This document shows, piece after piece, positions 3,116 through 62,100 of a DNA stretch of 64,000 nucleotides. The DNA is taken from assembly GCF_022045235.1 (NCBI RefSeq), contig NW_027266297.1, positions 32,054,001 to 32,118,000 on the forward strand, read 5' to 3'. Within the stretch, counting starts at the first letter, position 1; each line of letters starts with the position of its first letter. The notes under the pieces are model-generated. The model was not told the DNA's origin and made no database searches. It worked only from the letters and a program-made list of their open reading frames with translations. Source of the stretch: Haliotis cracherodii (lineage: Eukaryota). A program made the translations under genes and the position numbers.

Positions 3116-3862
3116 GTTCGTACTGCGCCATGCTTCGTACTGCTTCATACCTCGCACTGCTTCGTGCTTCATACTTGCTCGTGCTTCGTACTGCTTCGCA
3201 CATTTTGCTTCGTACTGCTTCTTGCTTCATACTGCATCAAGCTTCGTACTGCGTCATGCTTCGTTCTGATTCATGCTCCGTTCTGCTTCTTGCTTGGTAC
3301 TGCTCTATACTTCGTGCTGCGTGATGCTTCGTACGGTTTCGCGCTTCGTACTGCTTCATGCTTCGTACATCCTCGTATTTCGTTCTGCTTCGTGCTTCGT
3401 GTTGCTCCATGCTTCGTACTACTTCGTGCTTCTTGCTTTGTACTGATTCTTGCTTTGTACTGCTTCATGTTTCGTACTGCTTCTTGCTTCGTACTGCTTC
3501 ATGCTTCGTAATTCTATGCGCTTCGTGTTGCTTCATACGTCCTACTTCCTCGTGCTTCTCGCTGTTTTGTGCCTCATACTGCTTCATGCTTCTTGCTTCG
3601 TACTCCTTCATGCTCGTCCTGCTTCGTGCTTTGTACTGCTTCATGCTTCTTGCTTCGTATTGCATCGAGCTTCGTACTGCCTCTTTGTTGGTTAAGCTCC
3701 ATGCTTCCTGCTTATGCTTTATCTTTCGTACTGCTTCGAGCTTCGTACTGTTTCATGCTTTGTACTGCTCCATGCTTCGTACTGCTTAATGATTCATACT
3801 GCTTCATGCTTCGTATTGTTTCGCGCTGCTGCGTTCTTCGTAATACTTCGTACTTCGTAGCT
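3116..3862. repeat. Degenerate satellite of GCTTCGTACT/GCTTCAT subunits (~17-bp unit)
   Basis: Direct tandem iteration. It explains the Cys/Leu/Phe-rich spurious ORFs. Confidence 0.9.
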
Positions 3863-3899
3863 TGGTGCTATTGTGCTTGACTAGATAAAAATCCATACA

Positions 3900-5199: not shown

Positions 5200-6640
5200 G
5201 TTGCATTAAATTGCTTGTACTATATAAGATTACATTATATGACATACGAACATCCATTAAATGCATGTTATTAACCTTAATGTTTTGCAGCTGATTATGG
5301 TACTTTTTATAAGGTATTAACATTTTTATGGTTCTTTTACCGCGCATCTTCTCAAGGTGGAGTAAAGTCCAATGTACTTCTGTTCGTTTACATAACTGTT
5401 TTATTCAATTCTCATCACTATAATAGTTTAGATTTATATGACCTGCGAATAATGATAAATGCACCCACCGCGCTAATAATTTTGTCATCATGATTGTTTT
5501 CGTTTTCTTGTTATATTACAACGGGTCAGCCCAATGTGGGACTTCGTGGACTCTTACCATTTGGTCGATCATGAAACACACAAGCATGGGGTCGGTACTG
5601 AGAGACCAAGGGTCATAATCGGGACGAATCTTAAATCCATATAAACGAGCAACAGATCCTGACGTACTGGTACGCGGTGTGAACATTAAACATTTGAGAA
5701 TCAAAGACTTCCTTAACATCTTGCGACCGAACATCACTGCACCTTTATTGTTGTCATTGCTTTTTGTCAACGAAATATCGTATTGATATTGTGGTTGTGT
5801 TAATATTCGTTGTGGTGTCTTTACTCAAATTGTGTATTCATGGGGAAACTGAGAGGATGTATGTCCATAGTACAACACAATTACGTGATATGTGTGTTTC
5901 TTTCAACTAGCAATGCAGAATGTATGTTCGATGCATTAATGTTATTAATGTAACATTGATTATTTGTTTGTCTATCCACATATGCTGAAAACAATCTTTA
6001 GCTAATGTCTTTACTCAGACGAGGGTGCGTATGGCTGTGATATGAATGAGTGTTGCCTCAGACCCAAGTCAGGGTGCCTTTAATGATATTGAATCGAAAA
6101 AAGATAACCAATGGTCTTAGTTGTGTGAAACGTGTCATGTCATTGGGGTACGACGACACACTCCTGTAAGAATACATTGTCAATGAAAATAAACAACACG
6201 CAAGCCTTAATAGTGTGTTTTATTCCTTTCTATTCTAATATTGCACATGTTACAAAGTGGGACAAAATCAATGAATGAGTTTCATTGACACCATAATATA
6301 AACAATTAAATATGCACGTTTCACAAACCAGACCAATAACGATAATCAGTCTCAATCATTCGGTAGAACACACTTTTCAGTCACGCACTGTAATGACACA
6401 TCATGCCCTCTCATTCGCACTGGGGATCTGGCAAGTGGCATAATATGACATTTGATCTCGATGTTTTCGATTTGATCTCTAGTCAAATACTCATGATCAC
6501 TTATATCACGGTAGTTTACAGTAAGTCCTTTGAAATATGACATCTTAAGAAAAACGTCCTTATCTCACTATATATTAGGATATGTCAGAAACATTCTATA
6601 CTTTGTCTGATGAAATTGTGCTGCCTTGTTTGAACACATA
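5200..6640 (-). pseudogene. Remnant of a sixth array copy: last ~14 codons, stop, 3' UTR and downstream flank only
   Basis: 6596-6639 encodes ..VFKQGSTISSDKV* as in the intact copies. 6140-6595 is a diverged 3' UTR with AATAAA at ~6218-6223. The sequence joins directly to upstream spacer (atgttggtatctttgaca). Confidence 0.8.
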
Positions 6641-9202: not shown

Positions 9203-11093
9203 CTATACTTTGTCTGATGAAATTGTGCTACCTTGTTTGAAAACATGTCGAGCAGTAGATCGTGATCTCCTCAGACGCCTCCAAGCGTAGTCATAGGACT
9301 TTAGCATGGAGGCTGTTTTGACGTGGTATAATGCTCTTCTGTACACCACCCTCCGCATATAGACACTGCAGTCCTGAGACACAACGTTGTTCACCTGAGC
9401 TCTGACAAGTTTGTTTCCAAGAAGCCGTGTTTCCCATTTAACATTATCGGGAATATAGTGGCAGAACTTACTGAATACCACACACCTTCGTCCGTACCGG
9501 ATGGACTGAACACCGATCTCATAGAGAGCTGGCTTATTGTTCTCAGACTTGAAGATTGTCTTCTTTCTGAAACCGGGGTTGGCACCCCGCCTTTTCTCCC
9601 ACTGCGCATCCTGTTTGAGTGGAACGTCAGGAGAGATAACTTTGACCCACGGTGACCAGTCCATGTTTCTTAAGCTGAAGTTGTTCTCAAAAACTTCCTC
9701 TCTTCTCAGAAGAGGTGTCACAAATTTTGTAGGTTTCTGAAATAATACATTATATATAGTGAGTCCATTTAGAAATGGACATATCTTTAAAGTTCCTCAA
9801 GGGTACAACTTTAATCGATAAATGCCATCGTTATCAGCAGTATAAGAAAGAAATGAACAACTGTATATGTCATTATCACTTGGGAAGAAACATGTCTGAA
9901 ATATACCTTCAGTGATTTAGTTCCTGGTCTTCTGGTGGATTTAGGTTTGGCCTTTCGAACTGCTGTGATTGATATAGTTTTCTTTAAGGTGGGGATCTTC
10001 ACATCTTTCTTACTGCAACCGGTTGTGGTCTTCTTTGGCGATGACAGAGAGGCTACTCCATCACGTAGTGAGGTAAACATTCCTTCCATGTCTTTGCTGA
10101 GGGCACCTTCACCACAACGAGTTCGAACTTCTTTCTCATACACCTGAAATGACATATACAAATGTCAAAACAGGAATACACGGAAAACATATTCGGTAAG
10201 GAAAGTAAACTAAATATATTATGACAAATATATATGTTTATGAACCAAATTATCGAAGAGCAAGCTTACATCAAACATATCTGCCCCGTGCTCCCTGTAG
10301 CAGATGGCCATGAGGAAGTCGAAGACATTGGAAAAGCTGTCGAGTTGAAGATGGCGTCCCCCTGTCTCCTGGGACATTCTCTTGTAGAATTCCATGCTGC
10401 CACATCCACGCTCTACCCCATATATCTTCACTCCCTGGAAACGAATGGGATGTTTCAATGTATTTACTGTACATTTGACTTATGTTAGCATGATGCAATT
10501 CTGAGTGAACTCGATTTGTATCATCCCCAACTGACAATCAAACTCAAAATGCAATTCGATATTGTATTGAGAATTTGAATCTCTTGAAAAATAGCATTTC
10601 TTAGTGATGTTAAGAATTTAATTTGGCTAAAGTAAAATTAGCTCACCATTTTATTGAGAGTTTGAATCTCCTCCCTCCAGTCTATCTTGAGTTTGTTGTC
10701 GGGGTAGTCTGGTTCATGGGGGTTGGCATCCCCGATCATGACGAGAGCACGATTGGATCCGGGAGTCCATGACAACTCCTCACCAACTTGTCTGAGAACA
10801 AGTTCGTAACATTCGTCCGAGTCTCCGCCTCCAGTGCTGCTGACGTTGTTTACAAAGTCACATAGTTCCTTAACGTCTGTGGAAAAGTCGATCCACTTTG
10901 TTACGTAGTTGTGTTTGTCACAATAGTCCCCGTGTGCGAAGACGGCAATTCTGATGGCGGGGATGTCAGCCTGGAGCCGCTGTATCATGTCCTGGAGTCG
11001 ACCTCTGACTTCGACGAGACAGCTGCTCATGGAGCCGGTTGTGTCAAAGGAGAAGACAATCTCCGGAAGTCCACCAGGAGGAAGCAAAGCCAT
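9203..11093 (-). CDS. VWA domain + Lys-rich linker + ET/HRT-like GIY-YIG-fold domain protein, copy 1 (subtype A), 460 aa
   Basis: Spliced CDS join(11093..10647,10434..10270,10143..9907,9736..9203), all GT-AG with phase-0 coding introns (149+55+79+177 aa). VWA motifs IVFSFDTTGSM, AHGDYCD, TGGGD, LVMIGD, ETGG. C-terminal motifs WSPW, PALYEIGV, ETRLL, YDYAW. Non-coding exon 1 at ~11653..11542. AATAAA at 8799..8794. Confidence 0.9.
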
Positions 11094-11650
11094 GTTGAAT
11101 CTGTTGAAATATTCAGAACAATTGAGTGTACATGTATACAAGAAGTTTTACTTTTGAAATTGATACAGCTTTATAACCATTAACTCTGGCAGTGTAAATA
11201 TAAAAATGTCTTGAAAATCCATCTTTTGGTTCATTTTAATTTTAATGTTTATATTCTCAAGTAAATTTAATAATTTCAATTTTTAATAAAGTCAATTCAG
11301 AAACAAGAATGTTGGTTTCTTTAAAATATTTGCAAAGGTTATTTCCGTAAGTATGCTATAATTTATTAGCATTTTATAGATATAGAAAAATGTGTTCAGG
11401 TTATAAATACATATGATTTAATAATTTACGCTTTTCTTATAAAATAGATATAGATGTGTAATTTATTTGGCGACGATTTCCTCGCTGTTATCAGACCCAG
11501 TACTATATACATCATCACTGTTAATATGTTCCTCAAATTACCTTTTTTGAAGGTGACAGTAGTAATATAGTTCTTTTGCTATATTTCCACGCCGCTGTCA
11601 GACGTAGTTTATATATATTCAAGTCTTTCAACTGTAGTGTATGTCACTGG

Positions 11651-11750
11651 ACTGATCTTACTCAGCAGCCCGCTCGCTTTTATACTGGCTGAGAGGCGAT
11701 CAATGGGAGCTCGCTGAGACTTGTCTTGGTTGGCATGTTTAGACCTGTTC
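11651..11750 (-). promoter_or_regulatory. Core promoter of copy 1: TATAAAA + Inr (TCAGT) + p53-family half-site cluster
   Basis: TATAAAA at 11684..11678, TCAGT at 11655..11651 (31 nt spacing), RRRCWWGYYY-like decamers at 11717, 11731 and 11741. Confidence 0.75.
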
Positions 11751-14700
11751 CGTGGTTGTGTTTAGACGAGCAGGCGATGTTCATGTTTATGCGTTTCAGT
11801 ACATGCTTCTGTTTTGAAAGAAACAAAATCAACTGATTAATCAGTTGAAGATAAATGTAATCGGGGAATTATTAAGTACCTTGGACTTTGTGAAACGTGC
11901 TGTCTTTGAATGTCTCATATTCTGAATCGACACGTGAAACATACGTCCAGAAACAGATGAACATACTCTCTCAAACACATTATTTATATCAATGCTCCTT
12001 ACACTGTCTGTCGGAAGATATTTTGGTCAGAGACGGTACATTACCGCAATGTACAGAGTTTGTATATTATAGATGACGTCACTGCTTCGCGGAATGCTTT
12101 ACTCACACAACAAAATATCGATAATTTCCTCAGCAATAACACATAGGAATCTTGTAGATGTTTCTGTGGAATATATTGTCGTTAATTGATAGTGTGTATG
12201 TACTGTACTGGAAAAAATCATCCCTTCCAGTTGATTATCCTTTGATTGTGTAAACCATCATGAGGTGTGAATATACATTGTTTTGTTCCATTTGGAGAAT
12301 ACTTTGTCGTGTCGAACTTTCCCTGAGAAGCGTTGCTTTGTTGTAATTTCGAGAAAATATGTCGGTCCTAAATGAAAAACACTATTTGATATGTATCACA
12401 ACAATGAGCACTTTCTCTATGATAGTTTTGTACTCTAAGGCGTGATGAATTACTTTGTGCACGAATTCGCAGGCCATTTTTAACACATATAAAAAACCCA
12501 TGATGTTTGTATCTTTGACAGTGTGTGTCAATGTATTTCAGGAATAGAAACAGTGTTTTCATAATCAATATAGGACGTGAGAGTACCTCTTTGTAAAATG
12601 AAGAGACACATTTAATTGTCTTTCTGTTTCACGAGACTGCAGCTGATAATACTTTTCAAAAAGTTCTTTTTCTTACATGTAAAAAATATTTACTTTTATT
12701 TCAACTCCCGAGAATACGTTTTAAAAATATATCAATAAATTGTTATTCAAGATAACAACATTGACCAGTTTTCATGACATATATTTATAATACTCTTGCG
12801 ACCAGATTTGATGTGAAGTATCAGCCGTACTACAGTGGCCAGTTTCCTTGATATATACAGCTGGAAAAGAATTTAAGCATTACATGTTTCATGTTTTCAT
12901 ATATCCTGAACTGCCGTTTATCGTTGGGAGATATTTACACATGACATTGATTTCATTTTGATGAAAGTTGAAGAAAACGCCGATGTCTGCTATGAAGTCA
13001 GTTCAAGAGAATGCCATATCGTAAAATGCAAAGAAGTTGATGAAGCAAATGAAAGGGTTGTCACATAAATATTTCCACAGAACAGTTACAAAACATGTTA
13101 CTAGATTATCGATTTCCGTTTCTGTATTTCAGTTTGGGCTTGTCGATTTGTAAAAAAATAAAGGGGTTTCGTAAGAACATTAATACCGGATGCGATTTTG
13201 AAACAAGCAGTGTTTTCCATGATATATGTCGGAAACAAAATAAACGTTGCTCAGTTTCATAACATTAATCTAAACATGAACACTTTCTAGTCTTTTAAAA
13301 GTTATAAAAACGTATGATTTATAACATGTTGATATACATCTTCCGACATGGAAAGGTGGTGATTGTACATTCAGGAAATGCGTTCATGACTTGAGGAACA
13401 TATCTCTCCAACACGTTGTTTACCTTCGTTTCTCCTCACACGTGAGTCTAGGACTCGGTTTCATTGAGTAGCGCAGTGTAGTGAAGCGAGTTTAGAAAGA
13501 ATGTGTGACGTATTTACTTCGCGGATTGTTATGCTCAGTCAGCAGTTCTCCTGTCCATGCAACAACATTACACACCGATGTAATTTTCAAACTCAATACA
13601 TTAGATGCAGAGAACAGGAATAGCAAATCAATGCAAATTTTGACTAAATAATGCATGCAAAATGTGCAGTAAATACATTGTACACAATTGAGATGAAACA
13701 TAAATACATTCTATATTCGTTTGACTATGTAAGTTAAAAGTATGTGAATTACGAACATACATAAGATGTATTTTGGTCCTTTTTATTATGTCATCGCGTT
13801 ATTTATTCACCTAATGCGTGTATTCATGTATTTACATTTGTAATATTATAAAACTGCGCATCATCTCAAGGTGGGAGTGAGTGAGTGAGTGAGTGAGTGA
13901 GTGAGTTGGGTTTAACGCCGTTTTTAACATTATTCCAGTCATATCACGGCGTTCACGGTGGGAGGACAGCCCAATGCATTTCAGATATGCCAGGTTACAA
14001 TATAGGAGTTTAAACTCATATGACGTGTGAATATGAATAAATGCACGTGAGTGCTCATAGCTGGATCATATTATATATATGAATTTCTGTTTGTTTCTGG
14101 TTACTTTACATTCCAGCACGTCAGCTTAATGTGGAAGTTCGTTGACGGTTAGTATTTGGTGAAACACACGGGCATGGTTATGGCACTGACAGATTCTAAT
14201 TTACGACCAGACGATCCTGACACGGACCTTAAATAAAAACGAATAAAACACAACCTCTTTCAATATTCGTAAGAAAACTGCTGAATAGTACTTGATCATT
14301 GATTTCACGGATCAATATCCTGTAGTCGAACATCACTGCACCTTTGAGCTAGAAATGCAGTAACTTATTGACAGGCGCTCAAAAGTCCCAAAAATGTTGT
14401 CAGCGAAATATCATGCTGGAAATCGTAACAACAAGAACGGCTGTTCGTTTTGTTCCTTAAAATGTCTTTACTCAAAGAGATATGGAAGTCGGTTCTGGAT
14501 ATGGGGGGTTGTGATATGACTGAATGTTGCTATATGTCCATGTCAGGGCGCATTCAATGAAACTGAATCGAGAAAAGGGAAAGTTGAGGTCTTCAGTGTG
14601 AAACATACGCCACGTTTCGGGGGTAGGAGGACGCACTCTTGTAAGTAGACATTTTCAAAGAAAATAAAGTATATGCAAGTCTTATTTGTTTGTTTTATTC

Positions 14701-17550: not shown

Positions 17551-17650
17551 ACTGATCTTACTCAGCAGCCCGCTCGCTTTTATACTGGCTGAGAGGCGAT
17601 CAATGGGAGCTCGCTGAGACTTGTCTTGGTTGGCATGTTTAGACCTGTTC
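17551..17650 (-). promoter_or_regulatory. Core promoter of copy 2
   Basis: Identical to copy 1: TATA 17584..17578, Inr 17555..17551. Confidence 0.75.
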
Positions 17651-20987: not shown

Positions 20988-22883
20988 CTATACTTTGTCT
21001 GATGAAATTGTGCTACCTTGTTTGAACACATGTCGAGCAGTAGATCGTGATCTCCTCAGGCGCCCCCATGCGTAGTCATAGGACTTTATCATGGAGGCTG
21101 TTTTGGCATGGTATGATGCTCTTCTGTACACCACCCTCCGCATATAGACACTGCAGTCCTGAGACACAACGTTGTTCACCTGAGCTCTGACAAGTTTGTT
21201 TCCAAGAAGCCGTGTTTCCCAATTAACATTATCGGGAATATGGTGGCAGAACTTGCTGAATACCACACACCTTCGTCCGTACCGGATGGACTGAACACCA
21301 GTCTCATAGAGAGCTGGCTTATTGTTCTCAGACTTGAAGATTGTCTTCTTTCTGAATCCGGGGTTGGCACCCCGTCTTTTCTCCCATTGTGCATCCTGTT
21401 TGAGAGGAACGTCAGGAGAGATAACTTTGACCCACGGTGACCAGTCCATGTTTTTCAAGCTGAAGTTGTTCTCAAAGACTTCCTCTCTTCTCAGGAGTGG
21501 TGTCACAAACTTTGTTGATTTCTGGAATAATATAGTGTATTGTGAGACTCCTTGACATGGTCATAGCCTAACACAATGAAAACAAGAATTAAACACTCGC
21601 ATTATGATCGCGCATTATAAAAAAAATGAGAGAATATTTTACCTTGAACGATTTCTTTCTTGGCTTTCTGATGGATTTAGGTTTTGGCTTTCGGACTCTT
21701 TGGATGGATGTTATTTTCTTTAAGGTGGGAACCTTCACATCTTTCTTAGCGGCACTGATCGTAATCGCTGTCTTTGGTTGAGGAGGGGAGACAATTCCAT
21801 CACGTAGGGATGTAAACATTCCTTCCATGTCTTTGCTGAGGGCACCATCAGCGCAACGGGCTCGAACCTCTTTCTCGTACACCTGATGAGGGCAAATGAT
21901 CATTGATGAAAGGAATTTTATAACAACGAATATCACACAATTCAAATGACAGCCGCACTACGGATTTTAAAGTGATGCAGTTATTTCAACTTACATGAAG
22001 AATCTCTGCCCCCTGTTCCCTGTAGCAGATGGCCATAAGGAAGTCAAAGATGTTTGTAAAGTTTTCCAATTTAAGATGCCGACCTCCTGTCTTGTTGGAA
22101 ATGGTTTCGTAGAACGTCGTATTGTCCGTGTCGCACTGAACTCCATAGATTTTTACTCCCTGAAATTAAAATTAATTAATAGAAAAAGTGAATGAACATC
22201 CTTGTGTCGAAGTTACGGTTGTTGTGGCGAAGCAAAAGCAAGGTCCCTGCGCATTCCTTCTTTATTCATCATTTTCGGTTGTGTCGAACCTCGGATAACT
22301 TTACTCGGATACATTTACGTGAGTCTCTTCAACGTCGACTTAAAGGTGGTTGACTGGTGACTGTCGTGTTTTTATTATTTGATTTATGTCTGAAAATGAC
22401 CACAACTTGGAAATTAATAGAAATCCAACATACCATTTCATTCAGAGTTTGTGTCTCCTTTCTCCAGTCTATTTTTAGTTTATTGGCTTTGAAGTTTGGT
22501 TCGTGGGGCTTGTCGTCCCCGACGACGACGAGAACACGGTTAGATCCTGGTGTCCATGACAACTCCTCCCTAACTTGTCGGAGAACAAGTTCGTAACACT
22601 CGCCGTGGTCGTAATCGCCTCCTGTATCTTTAACGTTCATGACGAAGTCGCAGAGCCCTTTCACGTCAGTGGAGAAGTCGATCCACTTTGTGATATATGT
22701 GGATTTGGTACAGTAGTCACCGTGTGCGAAGACGGCGATTCTGACGGCGGGGATGTCAGCCTGGAGCCGCTGTATCATGTCCTGGAGTCGTCCTCTGACT
22801 TCGGCCAGACACTTGCTCATGGAGCCGGTTGTGTCAAAGGAGAAGACAATCTCCGGAAGTCCACCAGGAGGAAGCAAAGCCAT
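20988..22883 (-). CDS. VWA + ET-like domain protein, copy 3 (A/B mosaic), 462 aa
   Basis: join(22883..22434,22159..21995,21882..21643,21521..20988), GT-AG, 150+55+80+177 aa. Exon 3 (GVKIYGVQCDTDNTTFYETISNKTGGRHL...) was translated by hand because it is missing from the ORF track. Confidence 0.9.
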
Positions 22884-23434
22884 GTTGAATCTGTTGAAAT
22901 ATTCAAAACAACTGAAGTACATGTATACAAGAAGTTTCACTCTAAAAATTGATAGAAATTTAGAACCATTATCTCTAGCAGTGTAAATAATTATAAAAAT
23001 GTTTTGAAAATCCGATTTTTTTTCCAATTTAATCTTAATTTTTATATTCTCAAATAAAAGAATAGATTAAATTTTTAACAAAGTCCATTCAGAAACAAGA
23101 ATGTTGGTTTCTTAAAAATATTTGTACAGGTAATTTCCGTTAGTATGCTATGATCATTTTTTATAGAAATAGAAGAATGGGTTTCCATTATTAGAAAATA
23201 TTTGTTCTCATCAAATAGATATAAATCGGTAAGTTATTTGGCGACGATTTCCTCGCTGTTATCAGAGGCAGTACTATATGTATATATACACCATCACCGT
23301 TATACTACATGTTCCTCTAGTTACCTGTTTTGAATGGTGAGATTAGTTATATAGTTCTTGAGCTATATTTCCACGCTGCTGTCAGACGTAGTTTATATAT
23401 ATTCAAGTCTTTCAACTGTAGTGTATGTCACTGG

Positions 23435-23534
23435 ACTGATCTTACTCAGCAGCCCGCCAGCTTTTATACTGGCTGAGAGGCGACCAATTGGAGCTCGCTG
23501 AGACTTGTCTTGGTTGTCATGTTTTGACCTGTTC
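23435..23534 (-). promoter_or_regulatory. Core promoter of copy 3
   Basis: TATA 23468..23462, Inr 23439..23435, exon-1 donor CAG|GTAACT at 23325. Confidence 0.7.
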
Positions 23535-26500
23535 CGTGGTTGAGTTTTGAAGAGCAGGCGATGTTCATGTCTATGCGTTTCAGTAGATGCTTCTGTTTGG
23601 AAAGAAACAAAATCAACTGCTTAATCAGTTGAAGATAAATGTAATCGGGGAAATATTAAACATTTTAGACTTAGGGAAACGTGTTGTCATCGAATGTCTC
23701 ATGATGTTCTGAATCGACGCGTGAAACATACATCCAGAAACGGATGAACATACTCTCACAAATACATTGTTTATATCTATGCTCATTACACTGTCTGTCG
23801 GAAGATATTTTGGTCGGAAACGGTATATACCCGCAATGTACAGAGTTGGTATATTGTAGATGACGTCATTGCTTCCTGGAATGCTTTACTCGCACAACAA
23901 ACAATGGATAATATTCTCAGTAACTACACATAGGAATCTTGATTGTGTAAACCATTATGATCAAAGAAAAGGTGTGAATATACATTGTTGTGTTCCATTT
24001 GGAGCATACTTTGTCGTATCAAACTTTCCCTAAGAAGCGTTCTTGTGTTGTATTTTCGAGAATATATGGTGGCCCTAAACGAATTCGCTATTTTGCAAAA
24101 AAACATATATTGGTATCATAACAATGAACACTTTCTCTGAGATATAATTCGATAAGAAGGCGTTTTTAATTACTTTGTTCACGGATTCGCAGACCATTTT
24201 TTAATACCCGTTAAACAACATGATGTTGGTGTCTTTGGCAGTTTATTTCAGGAATAGAAAAAGTTGTTTTAAAAATCAATATAGGAAGCGATGTAAATTT
24301 TTGTAAAATCAAGAGCTACTTTGCGTATTTTTTCTATTTCACGAGACTGAAAATACTTTTCAGAAAGCTCTTATATACACCAATTTTTCCTTACATCTAA
24401 TATATATTTACGTTTATTTTCAGCAACGAGAATACGTTTTAAAAAAATATATCAATAAACCAAGTTATTTAAAATAACAACATCGATCAGTTTTCATGAC
24501 ATACATAAATGATACTCTTGTGACCGGATTTGATATGAAGTATCAGCTGTACTACCGTGGCCAGTTTCCTTGATATATACATCTGGAAAATAATTTAAGC
24601 ATTACCTGTTTTATATTTTCATATATCCTTAACTTCCATTTATCTTTTGGAAATATCTACACATGACATTGATCTTTTTTTTTTTGAATGTTTAAGAAAA
24701 CACCGATGCCTGCTATGCAGTGAGTTCACGAAAACGCCATATCGTAATATGCAAAGAAGCTGGTGCAGCTATTGAATGGGAAGTCAAATAGTTATTTCCA
24801 CACAACCGTTACAAAACATGCAATTAGATTATCGATTTCAGTTTCTGTATTTCAGTATGGGTCTGTCGCTTTGTAGAAAATAAAGGGGTTGCGTACGAAC
24901 ATTAATACCGGATGCGATTTTGAAACAAGGCTCTTCTCTATGGAAATATAGTAAGCAGTGTTTTCCATGATATATGTCAGAAACAAAATATTGCCCCGTT
25001 TCATAACATTAATCTAAGCATGAACATTTTCTGGTCTTTTACAAGTTATAAAACGTATGATTAATAATAACTATGTTGATTATACATCTTCCGACAAGAA
25101 AAGGTGATTGTTAATTCAGGAAAAGCGTTCAGGAGTTGAGGAACATATTTCTCAAACACGTTGTTTACCTTCGTTTCTCCTCACACGCGAGTCTAGGACT
25201 CGGTTCATTGAGTAGCGCAGTGTAGTGAAGCGAGTTTGGAAAGAATGTGTGACGTATTTACTTCGCGGATTGTTATGCTCAGTCAGCGGTTCTACTGTCA
25301 ATGCAACAACATTACACGCCGATTTAATTTTCAAACTCAATATATAATTTGCGTAAAACAGGAACAGTTAATCACAGCAAATTTTGACTGAATTATGCTT
25401 GCAAAATGAGCGATAAATACACTGTACAAATTGAGATGAATCATGAATATATTTTTAAGAATGTGAATTACGAACATACATAAGATGCAGTTTGGTCCTT
25501 TTATTTATGTCAAAACGTTATTTTTTCAACTAATGCCTGTATTCGGGTATTTACATTTGTAAGGTTATATAACTGCGCATAATCTCAAGGTGGGAGGACA
25601 GCCCAGTGCATTTCAGTTCGTGGATGTTAACATGAGTGTTTCATTATATGCGAGTTTCAATACAGGAGTGTAAACTCATATGACGTGTGAATATGAATAA
25701 ATTCACGTGAGTGCTCATTACTAGATCATATTATATATATGACTTTCTGTTTGTTTCTGGTTACTTTACATTCCAGCACGTCAGTTTAATGTGGAAGATC
25801 GTTGACGTTTAGTATTTGTCGAAACACACGAGCATGGTTACGGCACTGACAGATTCTAATTCACGACCAGACAATCCTGACACGGACTTTAAATAAAAGC
25901 GAAAGAGAAATCCATTTCAATATTCATAAGAAAACTGCTGAATAGTACTTGATCAATAATTTCATGGATCTATATCCTGTAGCCGAACATCACTGCACCT
26001 TTGAGCTAGAAATGGAGTAACTTATTGACAGGCGCTCCCAAGTCCCAATAATGTTGTCAGTGAAATATCATGCTGGAAATCGTAACAAGAATGGCTGTTC
26101 GTTTTGTTCCTTACGATGTCTTTACTCAAAGAGATATGGAAGTCGGGGCTGGATATGGGGGGTTGTGATATGCGTGAATGTTGCTGTATGTCCATGTCAG
26201 GGCGCATGAAATGTAACTGAATCGAGACAAGGGAACGTTGAAGTCTTCAGCGTGAAACAAACGCCACGTTTAGGGGGTAGGAGGACGCAGTCTTGTAAGT
26301 ACACATTATCAAAGAAAATAGGATATATGTAAGTCTTATTAGTTTGTTTTATTCATTCTTATTCAGTTTGATTTTGCACATGTTAAAATGAGGTATGATC
26401 TGAAGGCCAATGAATTAGTTTTATATACATTTTAATATAAACAATATATACAGCGTTTCACATAACAGAAAAATAACGTTCATCAGTCTCTGTCATTCGG

Positions 26501-29117: not shown

Positions 29118-29218
29118 ACTGATCTTACTCAGCGAGCCGATCAGCTTTTATAGTGGCTGAGGGGCGATCAATGGTATCTCGCCGAGACTTGTCGTGGTTG
29201 GCATGTTTAGACTTGCTC
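29118..29218 (-). promoter_or_regulatory. Core promoter of copy 4
   Basis: TATA 29152..29146, Inr 29122..29118, exon-1 donor AAG|GTAACT at 29002. Motifs are conserved despite divergent surrounding sequence. Confidence 0.75.
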
Positions 29219-35452: not shown

Positions 35453-35553
35453 ACTGATCTTACTCAGCGAGCCGATCAGCTTTTATAGTGGCTGAGGGGC
35501 GATCAATGGTATCTCGCCGAGACTTGTCGTGGTTGGCATGTTTAGACTTGCTC
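35453..35553 (-). promoter_or_regulatory. Core promoter of copy 5
   Basis: TATA 35487..35481, Inr 35457..35453, exon-1 donor at 35337. Confidence 0.75.
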
Positions 35554-42040: not shown

Positions 42041-42836
42041 GCAGAGAATACTGGTCACTTGATGCCTGCATATATTTGCTGCATGGTTTTGATTTTAGTT
42101 GAAATTCTGCATGAATGAGAAGCTAACTCAGGTGGATTCAAAATATTAGCTGTGTATATATAATGTAAGTCGTAAGTTCCTTGAAAATGATGACATTAAA
42201 ATGTTTGAAAGACGTATGCGAACCGATTTGTTCACATGTTACATGCCTAGACTAGCATACATACATACCAATGTACTGTTACTGATTTTCATTTGATCCT
42301 AATCATGAATGAACCCGCGTATATGTATTTCATCGTGCTCAATAGAACTTTATTTTAAACACTCACCAGAGCTAATGTAGCAAGCTGTGATAAAGTGACA
42401 GTGGTCCTGATGTAACGTCTCAGCCAATAATGATACGTAAGTTTCCACTCAACCAACCAAATAATAGAGAATGGATAATTCGGCACTGTTTTGAACCTAC
42501 TAACGTTTTCATAACTTTTGTAGTTTGGGGGTAAAATCAACTTGTATCAAGTGTATACTATCTTTTGTCCGGATGTTTATGATATATAGCTAAATAGCGA
42601 TACCCGAGAATATTATATATCAAACATTTTCCTTATGGAAGAACAAACTTGTTATACTTCAACTGTACACGTATAGTTTGCATGAAATCAGGTTAAACCA
42701 TCTCCTTGGCATTATTTCTTATTTAAATAAAAAAAACGTCAACACCAGTGAATAACCAGTCTCGATTATCCGCCGAACCAGATTTCGCGGAAAGGGTAAG
42801 CATGTCCTGCCCTACACAATGTGCATAACGTTTTTT

Positions 42837-43952: not shown

Positions 43953-45223
43953 ACATCTCCTCCACCTTCACCCCTATTAGCCCCTACTGTTAGTATTATA
44001 CATCTCCCCCACCCTTGCCCCTATTAGCCCCTACAGTTAGTATTGTACATCTCCCCCACCCTTGCCCCTACAGTTAGTATTATACATCTCCTCCAACCTT
44101 GCCCCTATTAGCGCCTACAGTTAGTATCATACATCTCCTCCAACCTTGCCCCTATTAGCGCCTACAGTTAGTATCATACATCTCCCCCACCCTTGCCCCT
44201 ATTAGCGCCTACAGTTAGTATCATACATCTCCTCCAACCTTGCCCCTATTAGCGCCTACAGTTAGTATCATACATCTCCTCCAACCTTGCCCCTATTAGC
44301 CCTTACAGTTAGTATTATACATCTCCCCCACCCTTGCCCCTATTAGCCCTTACAGTTAGTATTATACATCTCCCCCACCCTTGCCCCAATTAGTCCCTAC
44401 AGTTAGTATTATACATCTCCCCCACCCTTGCCCCTATTAGCCCCTACAGTTAGTATTATACATCTCCCCCACCCTTGCCCCTATTGGCCCCTACAGTTAG
44501 TATTATACATCTCCCCCACCCTTGCCCCTATTAGCCCCTACAGTTAGTATTATACATCTCCCCCACCCTTGCCCCTATTAGCCCCTACAGTTAGTATTAT
44601 ACATCTCCCCCACCCTTGCCCCTATTAGTCCCTACAGTTAGTATTATACATCTCCCCCACCCTTGCCCCTACAGTTAGTATTATACATCTCCCCCACCCT
44701 TGCCCCTATTAGTCCCTACAGTTAGTATTATACATCTCCCCCACCCTTGCCCCTATTAGCCCCTACATTTAGTATGATGCATCTCATCCACCCTTGCCCC
44801 TATTAGCCCCGACAGTTAGTATTATACATCTCCCCCACCCTTGCCCCTATTAGCGCCTACAGTTAGTATCATACATCTCCCCACCCTTGCCCCTATTAGC
44901 CCCTACAGTAAGTATTATACATCTCCCCCACCCTTGCCCCTATTAGCGCCTACAGTTAGTATCATACATCTCCTCCAACCTTGCCCCTATTAGCCCCTAC
45001 AGTTAGTATTATACATCTCCCCCACCCTTGCCCCTATTAGCCCCTACAGTTAGTATTATACATCTCCCCCACCCTTGCCCCTATTAGCCCCTACTGTTAG
45101 TATTATACATCTCCCCCACCCTTGCCCCTACAGTTAGTATTATACATCTCCCCCACCCTTGCCCCTACAGTTAGTATTATACATCTCTTCCACCCTTGCC
45201 CCTACAGTTAGTATTATACATCT
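43953..45223. repeat. 47-bp minisatellite (~28 units, some 37-bp variants)
   Basis: Unit ACATCTCCCCCACCCTTGCCCCTATTAGCCCCTACAGTTAGTATTAT. Confidence 0.95.
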
Positions 45224-45519
45224 TCTGAGATATTTCATTGGTGAGGCTGGGGGTGGGATCTTTTCAGCTACAAAACCAGACTATTTTTATATTTTAAACT
45301 ATGAGCCTGATTTTATTTAAGAACCACCTTACAACAATATGGTGGCAGGTCATTTATTTTTTTTAGACAGTCTGAAGTCTGTTTTTTCAAAAACTTTTAG
45401 GTACAATGTCTTATTTTCGCTAAATTCCCAGCTCACTTCCCCAACATAAGTGCATCCGCAACAGTGTATCCGTCAGTGTATCAAAGGTTGGGGAAAGAAT
45501 GTTTAGATTGTTTACATTT

Positions 45520-46120: not shown

Positions 46121-46515
46121 TAGAACTCTTGGCTCTCACTTGGAAATTTACCAAATTTAATATTAATATTAATTCTATACCAGTCAAATCACTGCAAGAA
46201 TGGGCTGTGGATGGAACTTGGGTCCTTGGCTTCACTTACATGCCCAACACCACAGCATCTGTGTAAACTAGTGCAGGACAGTAAAAGGGACATGTCTCAA
46301 TAACATCTTCATTTTATGTCCCAGACAATATTAACACTAGAATATACGTTCATCATGCTTGCATATTCAAGTGTGAAGAAAGAAAAACATGCTCTGCACT
46401 TGTTCGTATGGAGGAACTAAATACTTTTATGAAATTATTGATGATAAAAAACTTAACACTCACTTGGAGTTTTGTAGACCAAAGATGATCAATTGGACAT
46501 TCATGCAGTGTTTAG

Positions 46516-50503: not shown

Positions 50504-50967
50504 CACCTTAGTACTGTTTATTAAGTTGACCATTTTATACTATACATGTATCCACTAGATGAGTAACTCAAACCCATCATAATATTGCAGACCATAAGCT
50601 AACATAGACATATATATATAAAATATTCTTACATGTACTTTTGTGTTAAACTTTCCAGCTTATTTCCAACTTGGCACTTGAACAGGTTTTATTTTCCCCG
50701 AGCACAACCTGTATCAACAGAGAGACAGTTATAAGATATATTTTACCTTGTTGGCAACATATGTTAAGTTAAGAGGACTTCACCATAAATAGTGCGATAA
50801 CACTGTATGGTCCTGAGATACCCCGGTCACACGCTTGGTTGATTCCTACCAGTGTCTGTGTGATAAAGGCTCTACATACAATAAGACTTATTATGTCTTA
50901 TGTTCGATCCCATATGGTCAGTCTGACCTCACTACGCCATCACTGCCTCAACTATACTTGGGATACG

Positions 50968-51895
50968 TACGTGGCATAGTGAGTGAGTGAGTTACAATTT
51001 TACATCGCCATACGTGGCATAGTGAGTGAGTGAGTTACAATTTTACATCGCCATACGTGGCATAGTGAGTGAGTGAGTTATTATTTTACATCGACGTACG
51101 TGGCATAGTGAGTGAGTTACAATTTTACATCGCCATACGTGGCGTAGTGAGTGAGTTACACTTTTACATCGCCGTACGTGGCATAGTGAGTGAGTGAGTT
51201 ATAATTTTACATCACCTTACGTGGCATAGCGAGTGAGTAATGATTTTACATCGCTGTACGTGGCATAGTGAGTGAGTTATAATTTTACATCGCCATACGT
51301 GGCGTAGTGAGTGAGTTACACTTTTACATCGCCGTACGTGGCATAGTGAGTGAGTGAGTTATAATTTTACATCACCTTACGTGGCATAGCGAGTGAGTAA
51401 TGATTTTACATCACCTTACGTGGCATAGCGAGTGAGTAATGATTTTACATCGCTGTACGTGGCATAGTGAGTGAGTTATAATTTTACATAGCCGTACGTG
51501 GCATAATGAGTGAGTCACACTTTTACATCACCTTACGTGGCATAGCAAGTGAGTGAGTTATTATTTTACATCGCCGAACGTGGCATAGTGAGTGAGTTAC
51601 GATTTTACATCGCCGTACATGGCATAATGAGTGAGTTTCACTTTTACATCGCCGTACGTGGCATAGTGAGGGAGTTATATTTTTACATCGGCGTACATGG
51701 CATAGTGAGTTATAATTTTACATCGCCGTACGTGGCATAGTGAGTGAGTTATATTTTTACATCACCATACGTGGCATAGTGAGTGAGTTATAATTTTACA
51801 TCACCGTACATGGCACAGTGAGTAAGTTATAATTTTACATCAATGTACGTGGCATAGTGAGTGAGTAACAATTTTACATCACCGTATGTGGCATA
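50968..51895. repeat. 39/43-bp minisatellite (~23 units)
   Basis: Unit TACGTGGCATAGTGAGTGAGTTATAATTTTACATCGCCG. Confidence 0.95.
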
Positions 51896-52479
51896 AGTAA
51901 CAATACTATTTTGCTGTATGAAGGAAAGGAATTTGGCGTATTGAGCTTTACATTTGTTTTTAAAAGTGCAAACCACTCTCCATTGCAGTCAAGGACCCCA
52001 CTGAGGAAGTTGATGCCGTTTTGAACATTTCAGTTAAATCACGGGGTATCAACTTCTTGTGGAAGGAAAGGAAAGTGATGTAGGTACAGGTTCATCACTG
52101 GTGAAACCAGTCAGCACCGACGTGGTTCCTACCAGCCAGGTGACAAGTTGACAACATGATAAAGCTAATTATTATAAAACTTTATTCAAAACAAATTTAC
52201 AAACGTTATGAGGGAAAGCACCAAGTAATCGTTTTAACAACTATTTATTCTCAAGTGCTCCAATGATAAGGGGTGTCATTAAACAAGAAAAAGTAATAAT
52301 GAAAATACGGTAATAGGTTCACAGGTACGTTACTAACAACTAATTCTACCAATAGACGACAATAAAAATGATCAAATGAGCCAAATCTGCGCTGACAAAG
52401 ATCTGATTAATTAAATCAGAGCAAAGCACAAGCGGCTGAGCTAAGCAACTGTATTACAGTAATAACATGAGAGCAGCTA

Positions 52480-54987: not shown

Positions 54988-56487
54988 ACTTAACCAACGC
55001 GTGTTTCAAAACCTGGGGAAAACACGAATAACAAACTACCATATGTATACCGATGATGAAAGTATCAAAACAAAGCACTGAGAATAAGCTATTCAGCGGT
55101 ATCATTAAAGATTCCAACAAGCTGTGTACAATTATTGGGGAGGCAACAATGATCATAAATACATAAGAAATATCAGAGTGTACATATAAATTCCCCTAAT
55201 GTTTGAAAATCATAGTTACAAAAACATTTTCAATATATGGATAAGGTAGCGAACATACAGGAGCTGACTTAGCAAGAACATTTCAACTGATCAAGGAATA
55301 GGGATTTGAATTGGAGACTTAGTAACCAAGGATAATGACGACATTGATATGAAGTGATACAGTTAACTACAACGTGCTGACTAGAATTATACTGATTGTC
55401 GTTATGTCTTCAGTCAGACAATCACACACAGGTGGGAGCAGCATGGCTATTGGGACACTTCAGTCCGTCGTGGATGAAAGAATCGGAGTCCAAAACTAGT
55501 CCATTGATATTCGGAGGAATTGCCTGTTGGAAAGAAAGATACATTTGTTCTATATTAATCCAGAGATGGGACTGTTGAACATGCATTTAACAGATTATTG
55601 GAGCGGAACTGAATACACGTTTTTCAATATTTTCTGTGAAAAATGATGAAGAAAATTTTGGAGAACCTACTTGTCATAAACAATGGATGACGTCATTAAT
55701 TATATGCAAACAATACTTTGATAGGACGTGGCATTGCTATGGAATGCTTCACAAATAATAAAAACAATGGGATAATGGAATTACAAAACATATTAATTGC
55801 TAATCCATGCCGACTGGCTCAGTGAGAATTAATGTAAATGTTTGTACCAATATCCTTGCCCCAATGGATAATTTGCTATATTACTATGTTGATATAATTA
55901 CTTGCCTACTGGTATATGATGGTGCAGTGCACCATAGCGGTATCCTAGATGTCTGTAATCTTCATCGTATATGCTGCTGCAGTGGCCGAGCGTGCAGACT
56001 CACCCTGACAAGCGCGGAGACAGGTGCAGTGTGCTGCCACGGCAAGTGTACCTGCAAACATACAGATTGTGATCAGATGGCATTGCATGTACACAGGAAC
56101 AATGGATTAGGTGAGGTGAAATGGGGTTTAATGTCGCATTCAAGACTTTTGCACTTATATATCAAAATCATTCAATCAATTCCTGAAAAGAGACGTTCTC
56201 CAAACACAAGTAACCTAGAACAACAGCCTAAATGTGTCAGACTTGGTTATCAAAGTAGTCCGATTTCATGAAGTCTCAGTAGCCAGTCGCCACACAGTCA
56301 ACAGGCTATTGGTCTCACAGCCAACAGGCCACTGATCTCACAGTCAACAGTCCAGCAGAGAAAGAGAACTTCCTGCTTCATCGTTGGGGACCACGTCAAC
56401 CTGGTGTTACCTCATCGACACTATAGGAATAATTTTTTATGTAGAATATGTATAGTTTCTAGTCCATATCTCACTTGAACAGCTCTC

Positions 56488-57065
56488 ATGTTGCCGCCAT
56501 CCTCAGTTGTTGCCAGCCTCAGTTGTCAGCAGCCACCAGCCTCAGTTGCCACCAGCCTTAGTTGCCACCAGCCTCAGTTGTCAGCAGCCACCAGCCTCAG
56601 TTGCCACCAGCCCCAGTTGTTGCCAGCCTTAGTTGCCACCAGCCTCAGTTGTCAGCAGCCACCAGCCTCAGTTGCCACCAGCCTCAGTTGCCACCAGCCT
56701 TAGTTGCCACCAGCCTCAGTTGTTGCCAGCCTCAGTTGTCACCAGCCTCAGTTGTCAGCAGCCACCAGCCTCAGTTGCCACCAGCCTCAGTTGCCACCAG
56801 CCTTAGTTGCCACCAGCCTCAGTTGCCACCAGCCTCAGTTGTTGCCAGCCTCAGTTGTCAGCAGCCACCAGCCTCAGATGCCACCAGCCTTAGTTGCCAC
56901 CAGCCTCAGTTGCCACCAGCCTTAGTTGCCACCAGCCTCAGTTGCCACCAGCCTTAGTTGCCACCAGCCTCAGTTGCCACCAGCCTCAGTTGTTGCCAGC
57001 CTCAGTTGTCACTTGCCTTAGTTGCCGCCAGCCTCAGTGGTCGCCTGCCTCAGTTGCCACCAGTC
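56488..57065. repeat. 16-bp satellite GCCACCAGCCTCAGTT with variants
   Basis: Direct tandem iteration. It explains the SLSCHQPQL ORFs in all frames. Confidence 0.95.
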
Positions 57066-57743
57066 TCCATTGCAACCAGACTCTGTTGTCACCAGCATTG
57101 GTTAACACTAGCCTCAGATCCCAGCCACTGCCTCAGCCACAGTCAGGGACCACGTCAACCTGGTGTTACATCTCCACATGCAGTGAGTAAAACTGAAGAT
57201 ATAAACTAATAATTTGTTCTATAGGTATGATTTTTTAATGTATAATATGTATAGTTACTAGTCTATATCTCACTTGAACAGCTGTCATGTTGGTGCCTAC
57301 ATTTCATTGTTATTCGTCTGTCTACTACCCAACAAAGTTTCAAAGAGGGTCTCACACACATGTGAATTGATCGGCATGTTATGGAAGTTATTGAATAAAT
57401 TCTTAAATTAATAAAATACTGTCTATACTCCTACTTTGAAGAATCCTAGGCTTGTTTAGAAGGTATCAAATGAATACATCCAGAGCAGCATGGCTCAACC
57501 ACATCTGTATATATCCATTCTCGTGACAGGCCAAAATAGATTTTCAAAATTAATATGACAAATGCAGACTGAATTTGAAACATGGCAGAAACCTATGTGT
57601 ACCCTCACAGCTATAAACACTAAACTTTTATCAGTGTGGCTTTGAATTCCCAAAATATACTAAAATTCCACACCATTAACACTTGATCTATGTACGCTTT
57701 ATATATATTTGAATAAATTTCTTATGCCGATTTAGAAGTAGTA

Positions 57744-59159: not shown

Positions 59160-62100
59160 ATGTAATATGATATTTCTTCAGACACACCAGAGAGATTTGA
59201 CACACTCATTTTAACGAGGGAGAATTTCCTGTTTCAAAATCATTCAATCAATTCCTGACAAGATACGTTCTCCAAACACAAGTAACCAAGAACAACAGCC
59301 TAAAAAAATGAAACAAATTCCGATCAGAGCCATAGACATTTTAATAAGGTTGGTTAAACGAACAATTCTGATTCCAATCGCTCAGTGTCATGTCATTCTG
59401 ATGCACATAATTTGGATAGAAAATCTAAGAGACATTCAGTGCATTCTCATAAAGTCACACATCTAGATCAGAAAATAGACGACCAGGTGAACACTCAGGT
59501 GAACACAGCAGATGTTCTGATGAAGATTCCAACCAGTCACGTCTCAGTCATAAACGCCGCCATTCGGTTCGTAGTCACATATCAGCTGCCAGTAAGCTGT
59601 CGGATCATCAGGCTGCCAAACCTGCATGTATAACGGAGCAAGCCCAACTTAATGATCTTTGCCATAGGCGCCATGAGTAACAGGAGGCAGATGAAGTCTT
59701 AAGCATACTAGAAGATAAGGTGATTGAAGCCCAACATAAGCCGAAGAAGAAGTACGCACAGCACATATTCGGGCGCAGATGGTTGAACAAAAGGCAACTC
59801 AAAGGCGAGAGAGAATGCATGCTGAATTACAACAAGTAAGGAAGATTTGGAATTTGGAAAGAACTACATGAAGCCAAGCTACTTGAATATATGCTGACAG
59901 AGAATGATGAGCTACCTGAATCCCAGTCACCAAAGAAACTGAATCCTCATGACCCAGAATTTGAGCCTTTTTCCAATGACTTCACGGCAAATGTTACAAA
60001 TAGTGATAACACTGAAGCCCCCAAGATACAAGGTAGAAGTATGTACCAGAAATCTACTCATGGGTAACCGGTCAGTGAATCTTCTGTAGACCAGAGCCCC
60101 CTTCGTCCAGGATCTGTACCTGTACTCGCAACAGTTGATCCCCAGAACACTTATCCTACAGTCAACCCTGTTTCCCAACAAGAGGCTGTAACTCATGTGA
60201 TAAACAAATGTAAAAGGTATCCATCCCCTATGATACACACAATGCCTGATATGACTGAACTGATAATTGCTTCATCATATGGTATTCCTAAACCAACATT
60301 GCCCATGTTTTCTTCCGGTAGAGAAAGAGACCTTGCCATTCTTAAATTGGCGATAGAGAGCCCAGTCAATGTGCACCCCTACCTTTCCGAGCAATATAAG
60401 TATCAGTTACTTATTGGCCAACTAGAAGGCTCACCTAGGAGTCTAGCAGAAGCCTGTCTATATGATGTGAATTCATTTACCAGAGACACATATGGACACT
60501 CACGGCAGCTTGTGCAGTCTGAAATGGCTGCAATTATGCACTTTGTCTTGTAGGGTCATTCGCTAGTGGAAATGCTGAAATCCCTTGAAGGAGAAAATGG
60601 GTATGAACTCCGATGTGGCTCTCATGTTCATCGCCTTCTGGGAAAGTTACCACCTTCAGCTGGCGATAGTTTCGTTGAGTACTGCATCAACAAGAACATC
60701 CTCAGTACTGATAAAGATCAGACATACACCCTTGTTCACTTCTCCAACTGGTTGAGAATGAAAGCACTGGCAACAAGGATCGCACACCAAGCTGTTGCTG
60801 TGTACAGACCTGAAACTCAAATCGATCAACAAAGGATAATTCTCACCCTCCACAGAAGCGAAATCCTTCAACTGCAGTATTCTCAACCAAGATTGAACAG
60901 TCCAAACCTTAACACAGGCTGCTAAACCTAAGACATTTGCAGGTACCACAGGGTTTTGTGCATACTCCAACAGTTGTGAACATAGAACTATGAACATCAT
61001 TTCTATATCAGGTGATATATAGGATATGTTCCACCAGATTAAACTCCTACCTGAAGACAAACCCATCCTCAGATTCCTGTGGCGCAATTTAAACAATAAT
61101 GTGGATCCAGATGTCTACGAATGGCAGATCCTGACCTTCGGGACTACTTGCAGTCAATGTTGTGTGACCATTGCCCTACTGAAGCAATTGATGATCAGCG
61201 GCGAACCCTGAAGTTATGAAGAGAGGCTTTCTACGAAGACAACTGAGATACTAGAAGACTTGCCTGCAGAGACCATGTCAGATACCTTCGAGCTGTGGGC
61301 AAGTCTTGGACATGATGATAAGCAAGAACCTGCTCTTGTATTGCACTGGAAATGTAATACTGACGAACATAGCTTCCAGTATCGACCAGTTACATATGAT
61401 AAACTGAAAATGAAAGTTGTGTAAAAGATCCTTGCCACATAGTATGATTGGCTACTTGACACTGTTCACGTCAAGAGCCAGAAATTTGGTGCAGGACCTA
61501 AGGCGATCAAAACATAAATGGGACGCTGTGATAGAAACTGGAAAACTTGATGATCAGTGGTGTAAGTGGGAATCTGAACGGTGTGAAATCCCTCAAGTGT
61601 GTCTACCAATATGCTACACATCTAGAAACCATGATCCTTCTCAGTCACAGAAACAACTGCACATATTCTGTGGTGCTTCGGAGTGTGCCTATGGTTCAGT
61701 TGCCTATTTGAGAAGTGCAGATAGTAATGGTGACATAGCTGTCAGTTTTGTGGCTGCGAAAAGTAGAGTGGCTCCTGAGAAGCTGCTCTCAATGCACAGA
61801 CTAGAACTCTCTGCTGCCCTTACTGGTGCACAGTTAGCCGCTAAACTTCACAAAACATCGAGTTTGATGATCCAAGATACCATATTGTGGAGTGACTCAA
61901 CAAATGTCAGTCAGAGTCCTGTCAGTACAAGGTGTTTGTTGGGACTTGGGTCTCTGAGATACAATCCCTGACTCCTGCAGACAGCTGGCGTTATGTGAAC
62001 ACAAAGGATAACCCAGCCAATGTTGTCACAGGAGGTTTAACCTTGCAGGAACTCTATGTTGCCTCCCAATGGAGGAACAGTCCTCTTTTCCTTTTAGAAT

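Follow-up and report, generated by a model that had tools for sequence, protein, structure and literature searches.

Paired p53-type elements in the promoters of a tandem VWA-domain gene array in the abalone Haliotis cracherodii

The DNA analysed here, referred to as the window, is a 64-kb stretch of the Haliotis cracherodii genome (assembly GCF_022045235.1, contig NW_027266297.1, positions 32,054,001 to 32,118,000). Self-comparison of the window reveals a tandem array with units of approximately 5.8–6.3 kb that spans 6033 to about 38200. The array holds five intact minus-strand genes with GT..AG introns, encoding proteins of 460, 460, 462, 462, and 458 aa (Table 1). Copies 1, 2, 4, and 5 are identical to the H. 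cracherodii records P0001, P0021, P0031, and P0030, respectively, and several paralogues each are found in H. rufescens, H. rubra, and H. asinina. Judged by its sequence, copy 3 (20988–23941) is a recombinant, its promoter and intron 1 being A-type (84% to copy 1) and its coding region B-type. Exon 5 is 94–99% alike across all copies while exons 2–4 diverge (81% aa in exon 2), a pattern that suggests gene conversion. Elsewhere in the window are minisatellite arrays (3117–3869, 43953–45226, 50965–51896, and 56480–57136, with periods of about 47, 40, and shorter) and, at 60068–63197, the broken remnants of a Pao/BEL-like LTR retrotransposon, whose RNase H and integrase-like frames were recognized by eye in translation.

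Spliced transcripts of the array gene are present in RNA-like runs from several studies, the runs being called RNA-like by guess since none is on record as RNA. In run X1, contigs bridge all four introns; the bridging of 11100–11542, with X1 taken as RNA-like, confirms that the first exon of copy 1 is noncoding and that the transcript is spliced. Those of run X6 bridge three introns of the coding region and also join a variant first exon. Contigs of this kind cannot map a transcription start: cover at 11625–12100 is absent in three RNA-like runs and continues in X18, which spans the promoter with 33 differences and 7 gaps over 11107–12100, and is uninformative on this point. The start sites used below are therefore predictions.

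The array gene product consists of a VWA domain, a Lys-rich linker, and a GIY-YIG-like domain. Residues 10–230 form the VWA domain, for which both PF00092 and PF25106 score above cut-off; the predicted model has an integrin/TFIIH p34-like fold (Z 18.6, rmsd 2.6, 192 aligned), and a DTTGS MIDAS-type motif is present in 27 of 32 aligned members. A VWA domain with this motif is shared with the Mimivirus R811-like intracellular VWA proteins (Pfam VWA_4, PF25106); unlike these, the abalone family adds the linker and the C-terminal domain. The papers found describe no function. In other organisms, this VWA type occurs in fusion with ubiquitin-like, Ras, and SAM domains (P0100, P0105, P0091), which suggests a mobile intracellular adaptor module. 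A role as a shell-matrix VWA protein was rejected, as no hydrophobic leader was seen by eye at the N-terminus.

Following the VWA domain, the disordered Lys-rich linker leads into an alpha/beta domain at approximately residues 285–460, whose predicted fold has a pLDDT of about 90. The first-pass annotation of this DNA, made from the letters alone, had called this domain GIY-YIG-derived, and the Atlas lead for the GIY-YIG family was 0.87. The Pfam family PF19239 (GIY-YIG) scores above cut-off in the paralogues P0013, P0014, and P0229, where only profile positions 103–162 of 163 are matched; exon 5 of the window itself falls below cut-off (E 0.012). Fold searches with the predicted protein returned two lists filled by the VWA domain, with no GIY-YIG structural match among them, and a search of PDB by sequence gave no match. 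Residues E356, R411, W435, and R446 of the C-terminal domain are invariant or nearly so, and Y355 is kept in 24 of 32 members. What does not hold up is the active site: across the 32 aligned members, with positions mapped by inference from motif order, there is no conserved second-strand (YIG) glycine, subsequent arginine, or helix glutamate before YDYAW. In GIY-YIG nucleases, these glycine, arginine, and glutamate positions are crucial (PMC13179284). Because the catalytic residues are not conserved, the domain is probably a nuclease-dead GIY-YIG-like domain, and a repair-nuclease role of the array protein, as far as its sequence goes, is unsupported. A comparable animal domain lacking clear GIY and YIG motifs is the Unc-1 domain of ANKLE2, likened here by description; ANKLE2 was shown to be without nuclease activity (PMC13179284), whereas the abalone domain would be nuclease-dead by its sequence.

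The family is common to gastropods, bivalves, a chiton, a nemertean, and a brachiopod. Full-length homologues occur in Lottia, Lymnaea, Babylonia, Mya (P0046, labelled YR811-like), and Magallana, and the C-terminal domain is also matched in Tegillarca, Mytilus, Pecten, unionids, and Solemya and weakly in Lingula. Relatives in corals and Branchiostoma match through the VWA part only, and no relative was found in viral contigs or prokaryote genomes.

Upstream of each gene, the predicted core promoter places a TATA box 31 nt (32 in copies 4 and 5; five copies compared) from an Inr-type start. In copy 1, the segment at 11717–11750 reads AGACTTGTCT (10/10 to the p53 half-site consensus RRRCWWGYYY), TGGT, and then the abutting half-sites TGGCATGTTT (9/10) and AGACCTGTTC (9/10). 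Copy 2 has the same sequence at 17617–17650, copies 4 and 5 (29185–29218 and 35520–35553) score 9, 9, and 10, and copy 3 (23501–23534) scores 10, 8, and 8. These sequences and coordinates had been correctly reported in the first-pass annotation, as had the partial erosion of copy 3, the 19/20 match of the abutting pair in type B, and a distance of approximately 65–100 nt from the predicted start, the annotated span lying at −64 to −97 of the predicted +1. All three of its half-sites are there; it overlooked a fourth, at 11707–11716, which abuts the perfect one and matches at 8/10 in type A and 6/10 in type B. The cluster is thus four half-sites forming two abutting pairs of 20 bp, one at −54 to −73 and the other, separated from it by 4 nt, at −78 to −97. 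Pairs with spacer 0 and intact C4 and G7 reach 18/20 in type A and 19/20 in type B (16/20 and 18/20 in copy 3). They occupy a proximal-promoter position in a transcribed gene, as seen from the TATA/Inr spacing and the exon 1 joint in run X1, with the start itself predicted. Farther upstream, at 11760–11790 and in its homologues, lies a further conserved three-quarter site, RRRCATG on the minus strand, in which RRR is AAA in copy 1, AGA in copies 2 and 3, and AGG in copies 4 and 5.

Table 1. Array promoter elements and genes, in window coordinates.
Feature	Position	Strand	Details
Distal 20-bp p53-type element, copy 1, spacer 0, −78 to −97; strong site	11731–11750	.	18/20 consensus; dlogKd 0.87 Dmp53, 1.24 Hsp53, 0.66 dNp63a, 1.37 dNp73b, 1.67 Drp53
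Proximal 20-bp element, copy 1, −54 to −73; perfect half-site plus weaker half-site	11707–11726	.	18/20; dlogKd 1.61 Dmp53, 0.87 dNp63a
Element pair, copy 2 (type A)	17607–17650	.	Identical to copy 1
Element pair, copy 3 (A-type promoter); distal site weakened	23491–23534	.	Half-sites 8, 10, 8, 8; P 0.003–0.010
Element pair, copy 4 (type B); distal site 29199–29218, 19/20	29175–29218	.	dlogKd 0.41 dNp63a, 0.79 dNp73b, 0.99 Dmp53, 1.11 Hsp53
Element pair, copy 5 (type B)	35510–35553	.	Identical to copy 4
TATA box TATAAAAG, copy 1	11677–11684	-	Sequence; position same in all five copies
Inr-type start TCAGT, predicted +1 at 11653	11650–11655	-	31 nt from TATA T; prediction
Copy 1 noncoding exon 1	11542–11653	-	Joint 11100–11542 in RNA-like contig of run X1; donor GTAATT
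Copy 1 coding exons, 460 aa	11093–10647, 10434–10270, 10143–9907, 9736–9203 (span 9203–11093)	-	Intact, GT..AG introns, identical to P0001; splice joints in runs X1, X6; Pfam
Copy 2 gene, type A	16993–15103	-	
Copy 3 gene, B-type coding region	22883–20988	-	
Copy 4 gene, type B	28642–26753	-	
Copy 5 gene, type B	34977–33094	-	
3ʹ remnant of sixth copy (last 14 codons and 3ʹ flank only)	6033–6640	-	Self-BLAST, tblastn

Clusters of this kind are rare by chance. Three half-sites of at least 9/10 within 40 nt occur four times in the window (copies 1, 2, 4, and 5), where 150 dinucleotide shuffles gave 0.027 per 64 kb, and the seven abutting pairs of at least 18/20, all of them in array promoters, compare with 0.41 expected from shuffles. 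Since the five copies are of one origin, these cluster counts amount to one observation, made post hoc, and reading the copies as five confirmations was rejected for that reason. The excess of single half-sites (24 versus 15) was likewise set aside, as the array copies inflate the count.

For predicted affinity, the window was scored with five of the ten measured matrices in supplement 5 of PMC2807882; these describe fly and vertebrate proteins, which may not behave as the abalone proteins do. Specificity is common to fly p53, human p63 and p73, and vertebrate p53 (PMC2807882). The first-pass annotation had proposed a matrix scan against background, and the outcome favours its reading: under all five matrices, the top site of the 64 kb is an array promoter copy. 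The distal site has a dlogKd of 0.66–1.67 in type A and 0.41–1.33 in type B, scores that arise at 0.002–0.005 and 0–0.009 per kb, respectively, in 6 Mb of simulated sequence. In shuffles of each promoter's own 300 nt, P was 0.0013–0.0027 for copy 1, 0.003–0.010 for copy 3, and 0.0003–0.0043 for copy 4 (four matrices). Most reported p53 sites lie within 1.5 logKd units of the best site (PMC2807882), and the distal site falls within about that distance under five of five matrices in type B and four of five in type A (the exception being Drp53, 1.67). Half-site positions 1, 2, 9, and 10 are tolerant (PMC2807882), and the main mismatch of the array sites falls at such positions.

The array sites resemble the p53/p63/p73 response elements described in PMC2807882: their half-sites abut and keep C4 and G7 in the core, most of their mismatches fall where changes are tolerated, and they combine a predicted affinity in or near the reported range with a proximal-promoter position. 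They differ in the CCTG core of the type A site and in that the abalone site is predicted from sequence. Predicted p53 sites far outnumber bound ones (PMC2807882). Within the window, isolated p53-like sites with no evident gene lie outside the array at 42239–42258, 46385–46405, and 61297–61317. The first of these outranks the type A site under three of five matrices; with Hsp53, the other two, which are spacer-1 sites, score 1.0 (61297) and 1.13 (46385). The core-promoter pattern of the array had no match in metagenome contigs.

Homologous genes from distant relatives provide an independent, prospective test of the promoter site. A metagenome scan yielded 10 loci with homologues, of which three (L004–L006) have the promoter in view; L001 and L002 are coding upstream, L003 has 270 nt, and L007–L010 begin at internal exons. 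One locus carries a homologous exon with an in-frame stop (L010:508–588) and is a possible pseudogene. L004–L006 are related to each other, have 61–65% amino acid identity to the abalone protein (64–65% for L004 and L005), and differ from it in intron position. Only their VWA exons are in view, their transcription starts are predicted, and they count as one lineage. Their best named match is a nemertean protein (71%), and a 59-row VWA tree, built on a short alignment with a midpoint root, places them outside the clade of Haliotis and other named molluscs. No alignment was obtained between their promoters and that of the abalone (best E 0.38). L004 and L005 nevertheless each have a spacer-0 site ending 120 nt before the only upstream TATA, with Dmp53 scores of 0.77 and 0.67 and P of 0.0007–0.0057 and 0.0003–0.0017 (300-nt shuffles). 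The core is broken at the same place in L006 (P 0.16–0.35), and all three loci retain a second perfect half-site nearer the TATA, with consensus-preserving changes. For each of three matrices, none of 250 palindromic decoys equalled the score in both lineages, and the other 25,035 nt of locus DNA held no spacer-0 site at the same cut-offs. Recurrence in two of the three promoters in view, in one lineage among 10 loci, is the strongest evidence for the element, and it adds one extra lineage only. Spacer-1 p53-like sites at L008:296–316 (intron) and L001:2152–2172 (downstream), coral-clade VWA homologues, are outside the promoter.

The p53-type site of L004–L006 is flanked by a cluster of NF-kB-like sites (L004:1285–1380, L005:245–375, and L006:725–825), identified by the kappaB motif. 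Their promoters hold several such sites against 0.27 expected per 300 nt; two perfect GGGATTCCCC occur, in L004 and L006, and none in the abalone promoters.

Taken together, the cluster is likely a functional p53-family element of an undescribed invertebrate target family. In the open-access literature searched (main texts), the array family is missing from papers on p53, and neither a p53-target role nor its abalone expansion is described. The first-pass annotation had proposed a p53-family target that responds to DNA damage or stress, in keeping with a GIY-YIG-derived domain; its reading of the element is strengthened by affinity scoring, promoter position, and recurrence in distant homologues, and the link to a GIY-YIG nuclease is weak. 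In the proposed mechanism, a p53, p63, or p73 tetramer would bind the distal 20-mer, and a second might occupy the weaker proximal 20-mer. The bound tetramers would recruit the TATA machinery 22–46 bases away and so activate the adjacent promoter, yielding an intracellular VWA adaptor that, with its basic linker and probably nuclease-dead GIY-YIG-like domain, would bind nucleic acid or protein and not cut DNA. Binding of the element by an abalone p53-family protein is probable, and given binding, induction by stress is rather favoured. The full proposal, that abalone p53/p63/p73 turns on transcription of the array, with genotoxic or another cell stress as the probable trigger, stands at an even balance.

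Evidence from other systems bears on this proposal in both directions. Oyster p53 activated reporters of oyster Cg-Bak and Cg-Bax in HEK293T cells (PMC5550854); these are mollusc promoters activated by a mollusc p53, as is predicted for the abalone array. In the available part of that report, Cg-Bak and Cg-Bax, both of the Bcl-2 family, are represented by 2-kb fragments with no site mapped, whereas the abalone site is defined and its gene unrelated. In mussel, p53 rises after UV (PMC3634015). A mussel contig labelled R811, which may not belong to the abalone array family, is down about 40-fold after injury (PMC6401078); this, the sole expression datum found, counts against the proposal. Plant EFFECTOR OF TRANSCRIPTION (ET) proteins also carry a GIY-YIG-type domain in a eukaryotic protein, and ET2 is induced by ionising radiation in an ATM-dependent manner (PMC6585611). 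Compared by description, the ET proteins in the available account combine an active nicking domain with zinc-binding ET repeats and no VWA, whereas the abalone domain is without conserved catalytic residues, and the induction of ET2 is a parallel for the abalone gene by analogy only.

A p53-family protein might also bind for steady, p63-like expression in epithelium, germ line, or stem cells rather than for stress. Such a constitutive role would fit the sequence as well as a DNA-damage response does, and overall it is improbable. It draws on the best scores being those with dNp63a (0.41–0.66), on p53, p63, and p73 selecting the same sites (PMC2807882), on spliced transcripts appearing across several studies, and on a GIY-YIG-like domain whose missing catalytic residues weaken the link to repair. 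However, dNp63a is the least specific matrix (7.2 bits; PMC2807882), so low scores are expected of it, and the several kappaB-like sites of the L004–L006 promoters suggest an inducible gene.

It is less likely still that the cluster arose incidentally, from a single chance 20-mer that a short local duplication enlarged and that has persisted inside a core promoter conserved as a whole. A 23–26 nt internal repeat does run through the cluster, with a score reached by 6 of 500 shuffles for copy 1 and none of 500 for copy 4, and the second element may have been born of local duplication, thereby inflating the cluster; against this, TRF found no tandem repeat there. The flanks are conserved as much as the site. 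Between types A and B, identity is 31/34 over the span of the first-pass annotation, 20/22 from site to TATA, and 29/34 from TATA to Inr; it falls to 63/100 in the DNA upstream of the site, 71/109 over exon 1, and 227/441 over intron 1. The annotation was right that the cluster is conserved while intron 1 diverges, but conservation is even all the way from −100 to +3, and with the stretch up to the TATA equally kept, the site is not singled out by conservation. Substitutions in the sites spare the C/G cores in abalone, but only 3 of 15 tests showed them to be significantly milder than random ones (P ≤ 0.05). Erosion in copy 3 and L006 and the presence of one to three comparable sites within 31 kb outside the array also suit a chance origin. 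Such an origin requires a second chance event, of approximately 0.001–0.005, in the L004/L005 lineage and at a location of the kind predicted, and none of the decoy matrices gave the two-lineage match. Least likely, and quite improbable, is that another factor with an overlapping motif (such as Grainyhead/CP2, SMAD with AGAC/GTCT, RUNX, or FOX) reads the conserved bases: AGAC, GTCT, TGTTT, and AACCAC words occur in a block conserved throughout, but the two-half-site p53 pattern with 10-bp phasing is common to both lineages and the second TGTTTAGAC is not retained in type B.

With response-element function the preferred reading, the element itself is of a known type, and the interest lies in its target, a family of invertebrate genes that is uncharacterised. 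In molluscs, hardly any direct p53 targets have been mapped, the one study located having worked with promoter fragments of 2 kb. More tentatively, and with the odds somewhat against it, the family might be an ancient arm of the p53 network: a VWA and nuclease-dead GIY-YIG family across molluscs and other spiralians, under direct p53-family control kept despite complete promoter turnover, with NF-kB sites added in one lineage and, in abalone, amplification together with its p53 switch. If the proposal is true, a strong, defined site would be the first function-level clue for this family, would offer a ready reporter and biomarker for following p53 activity in both abalone and bivalves, and would represent a regulatory link kept over deep time even as the promoter around it turned over.
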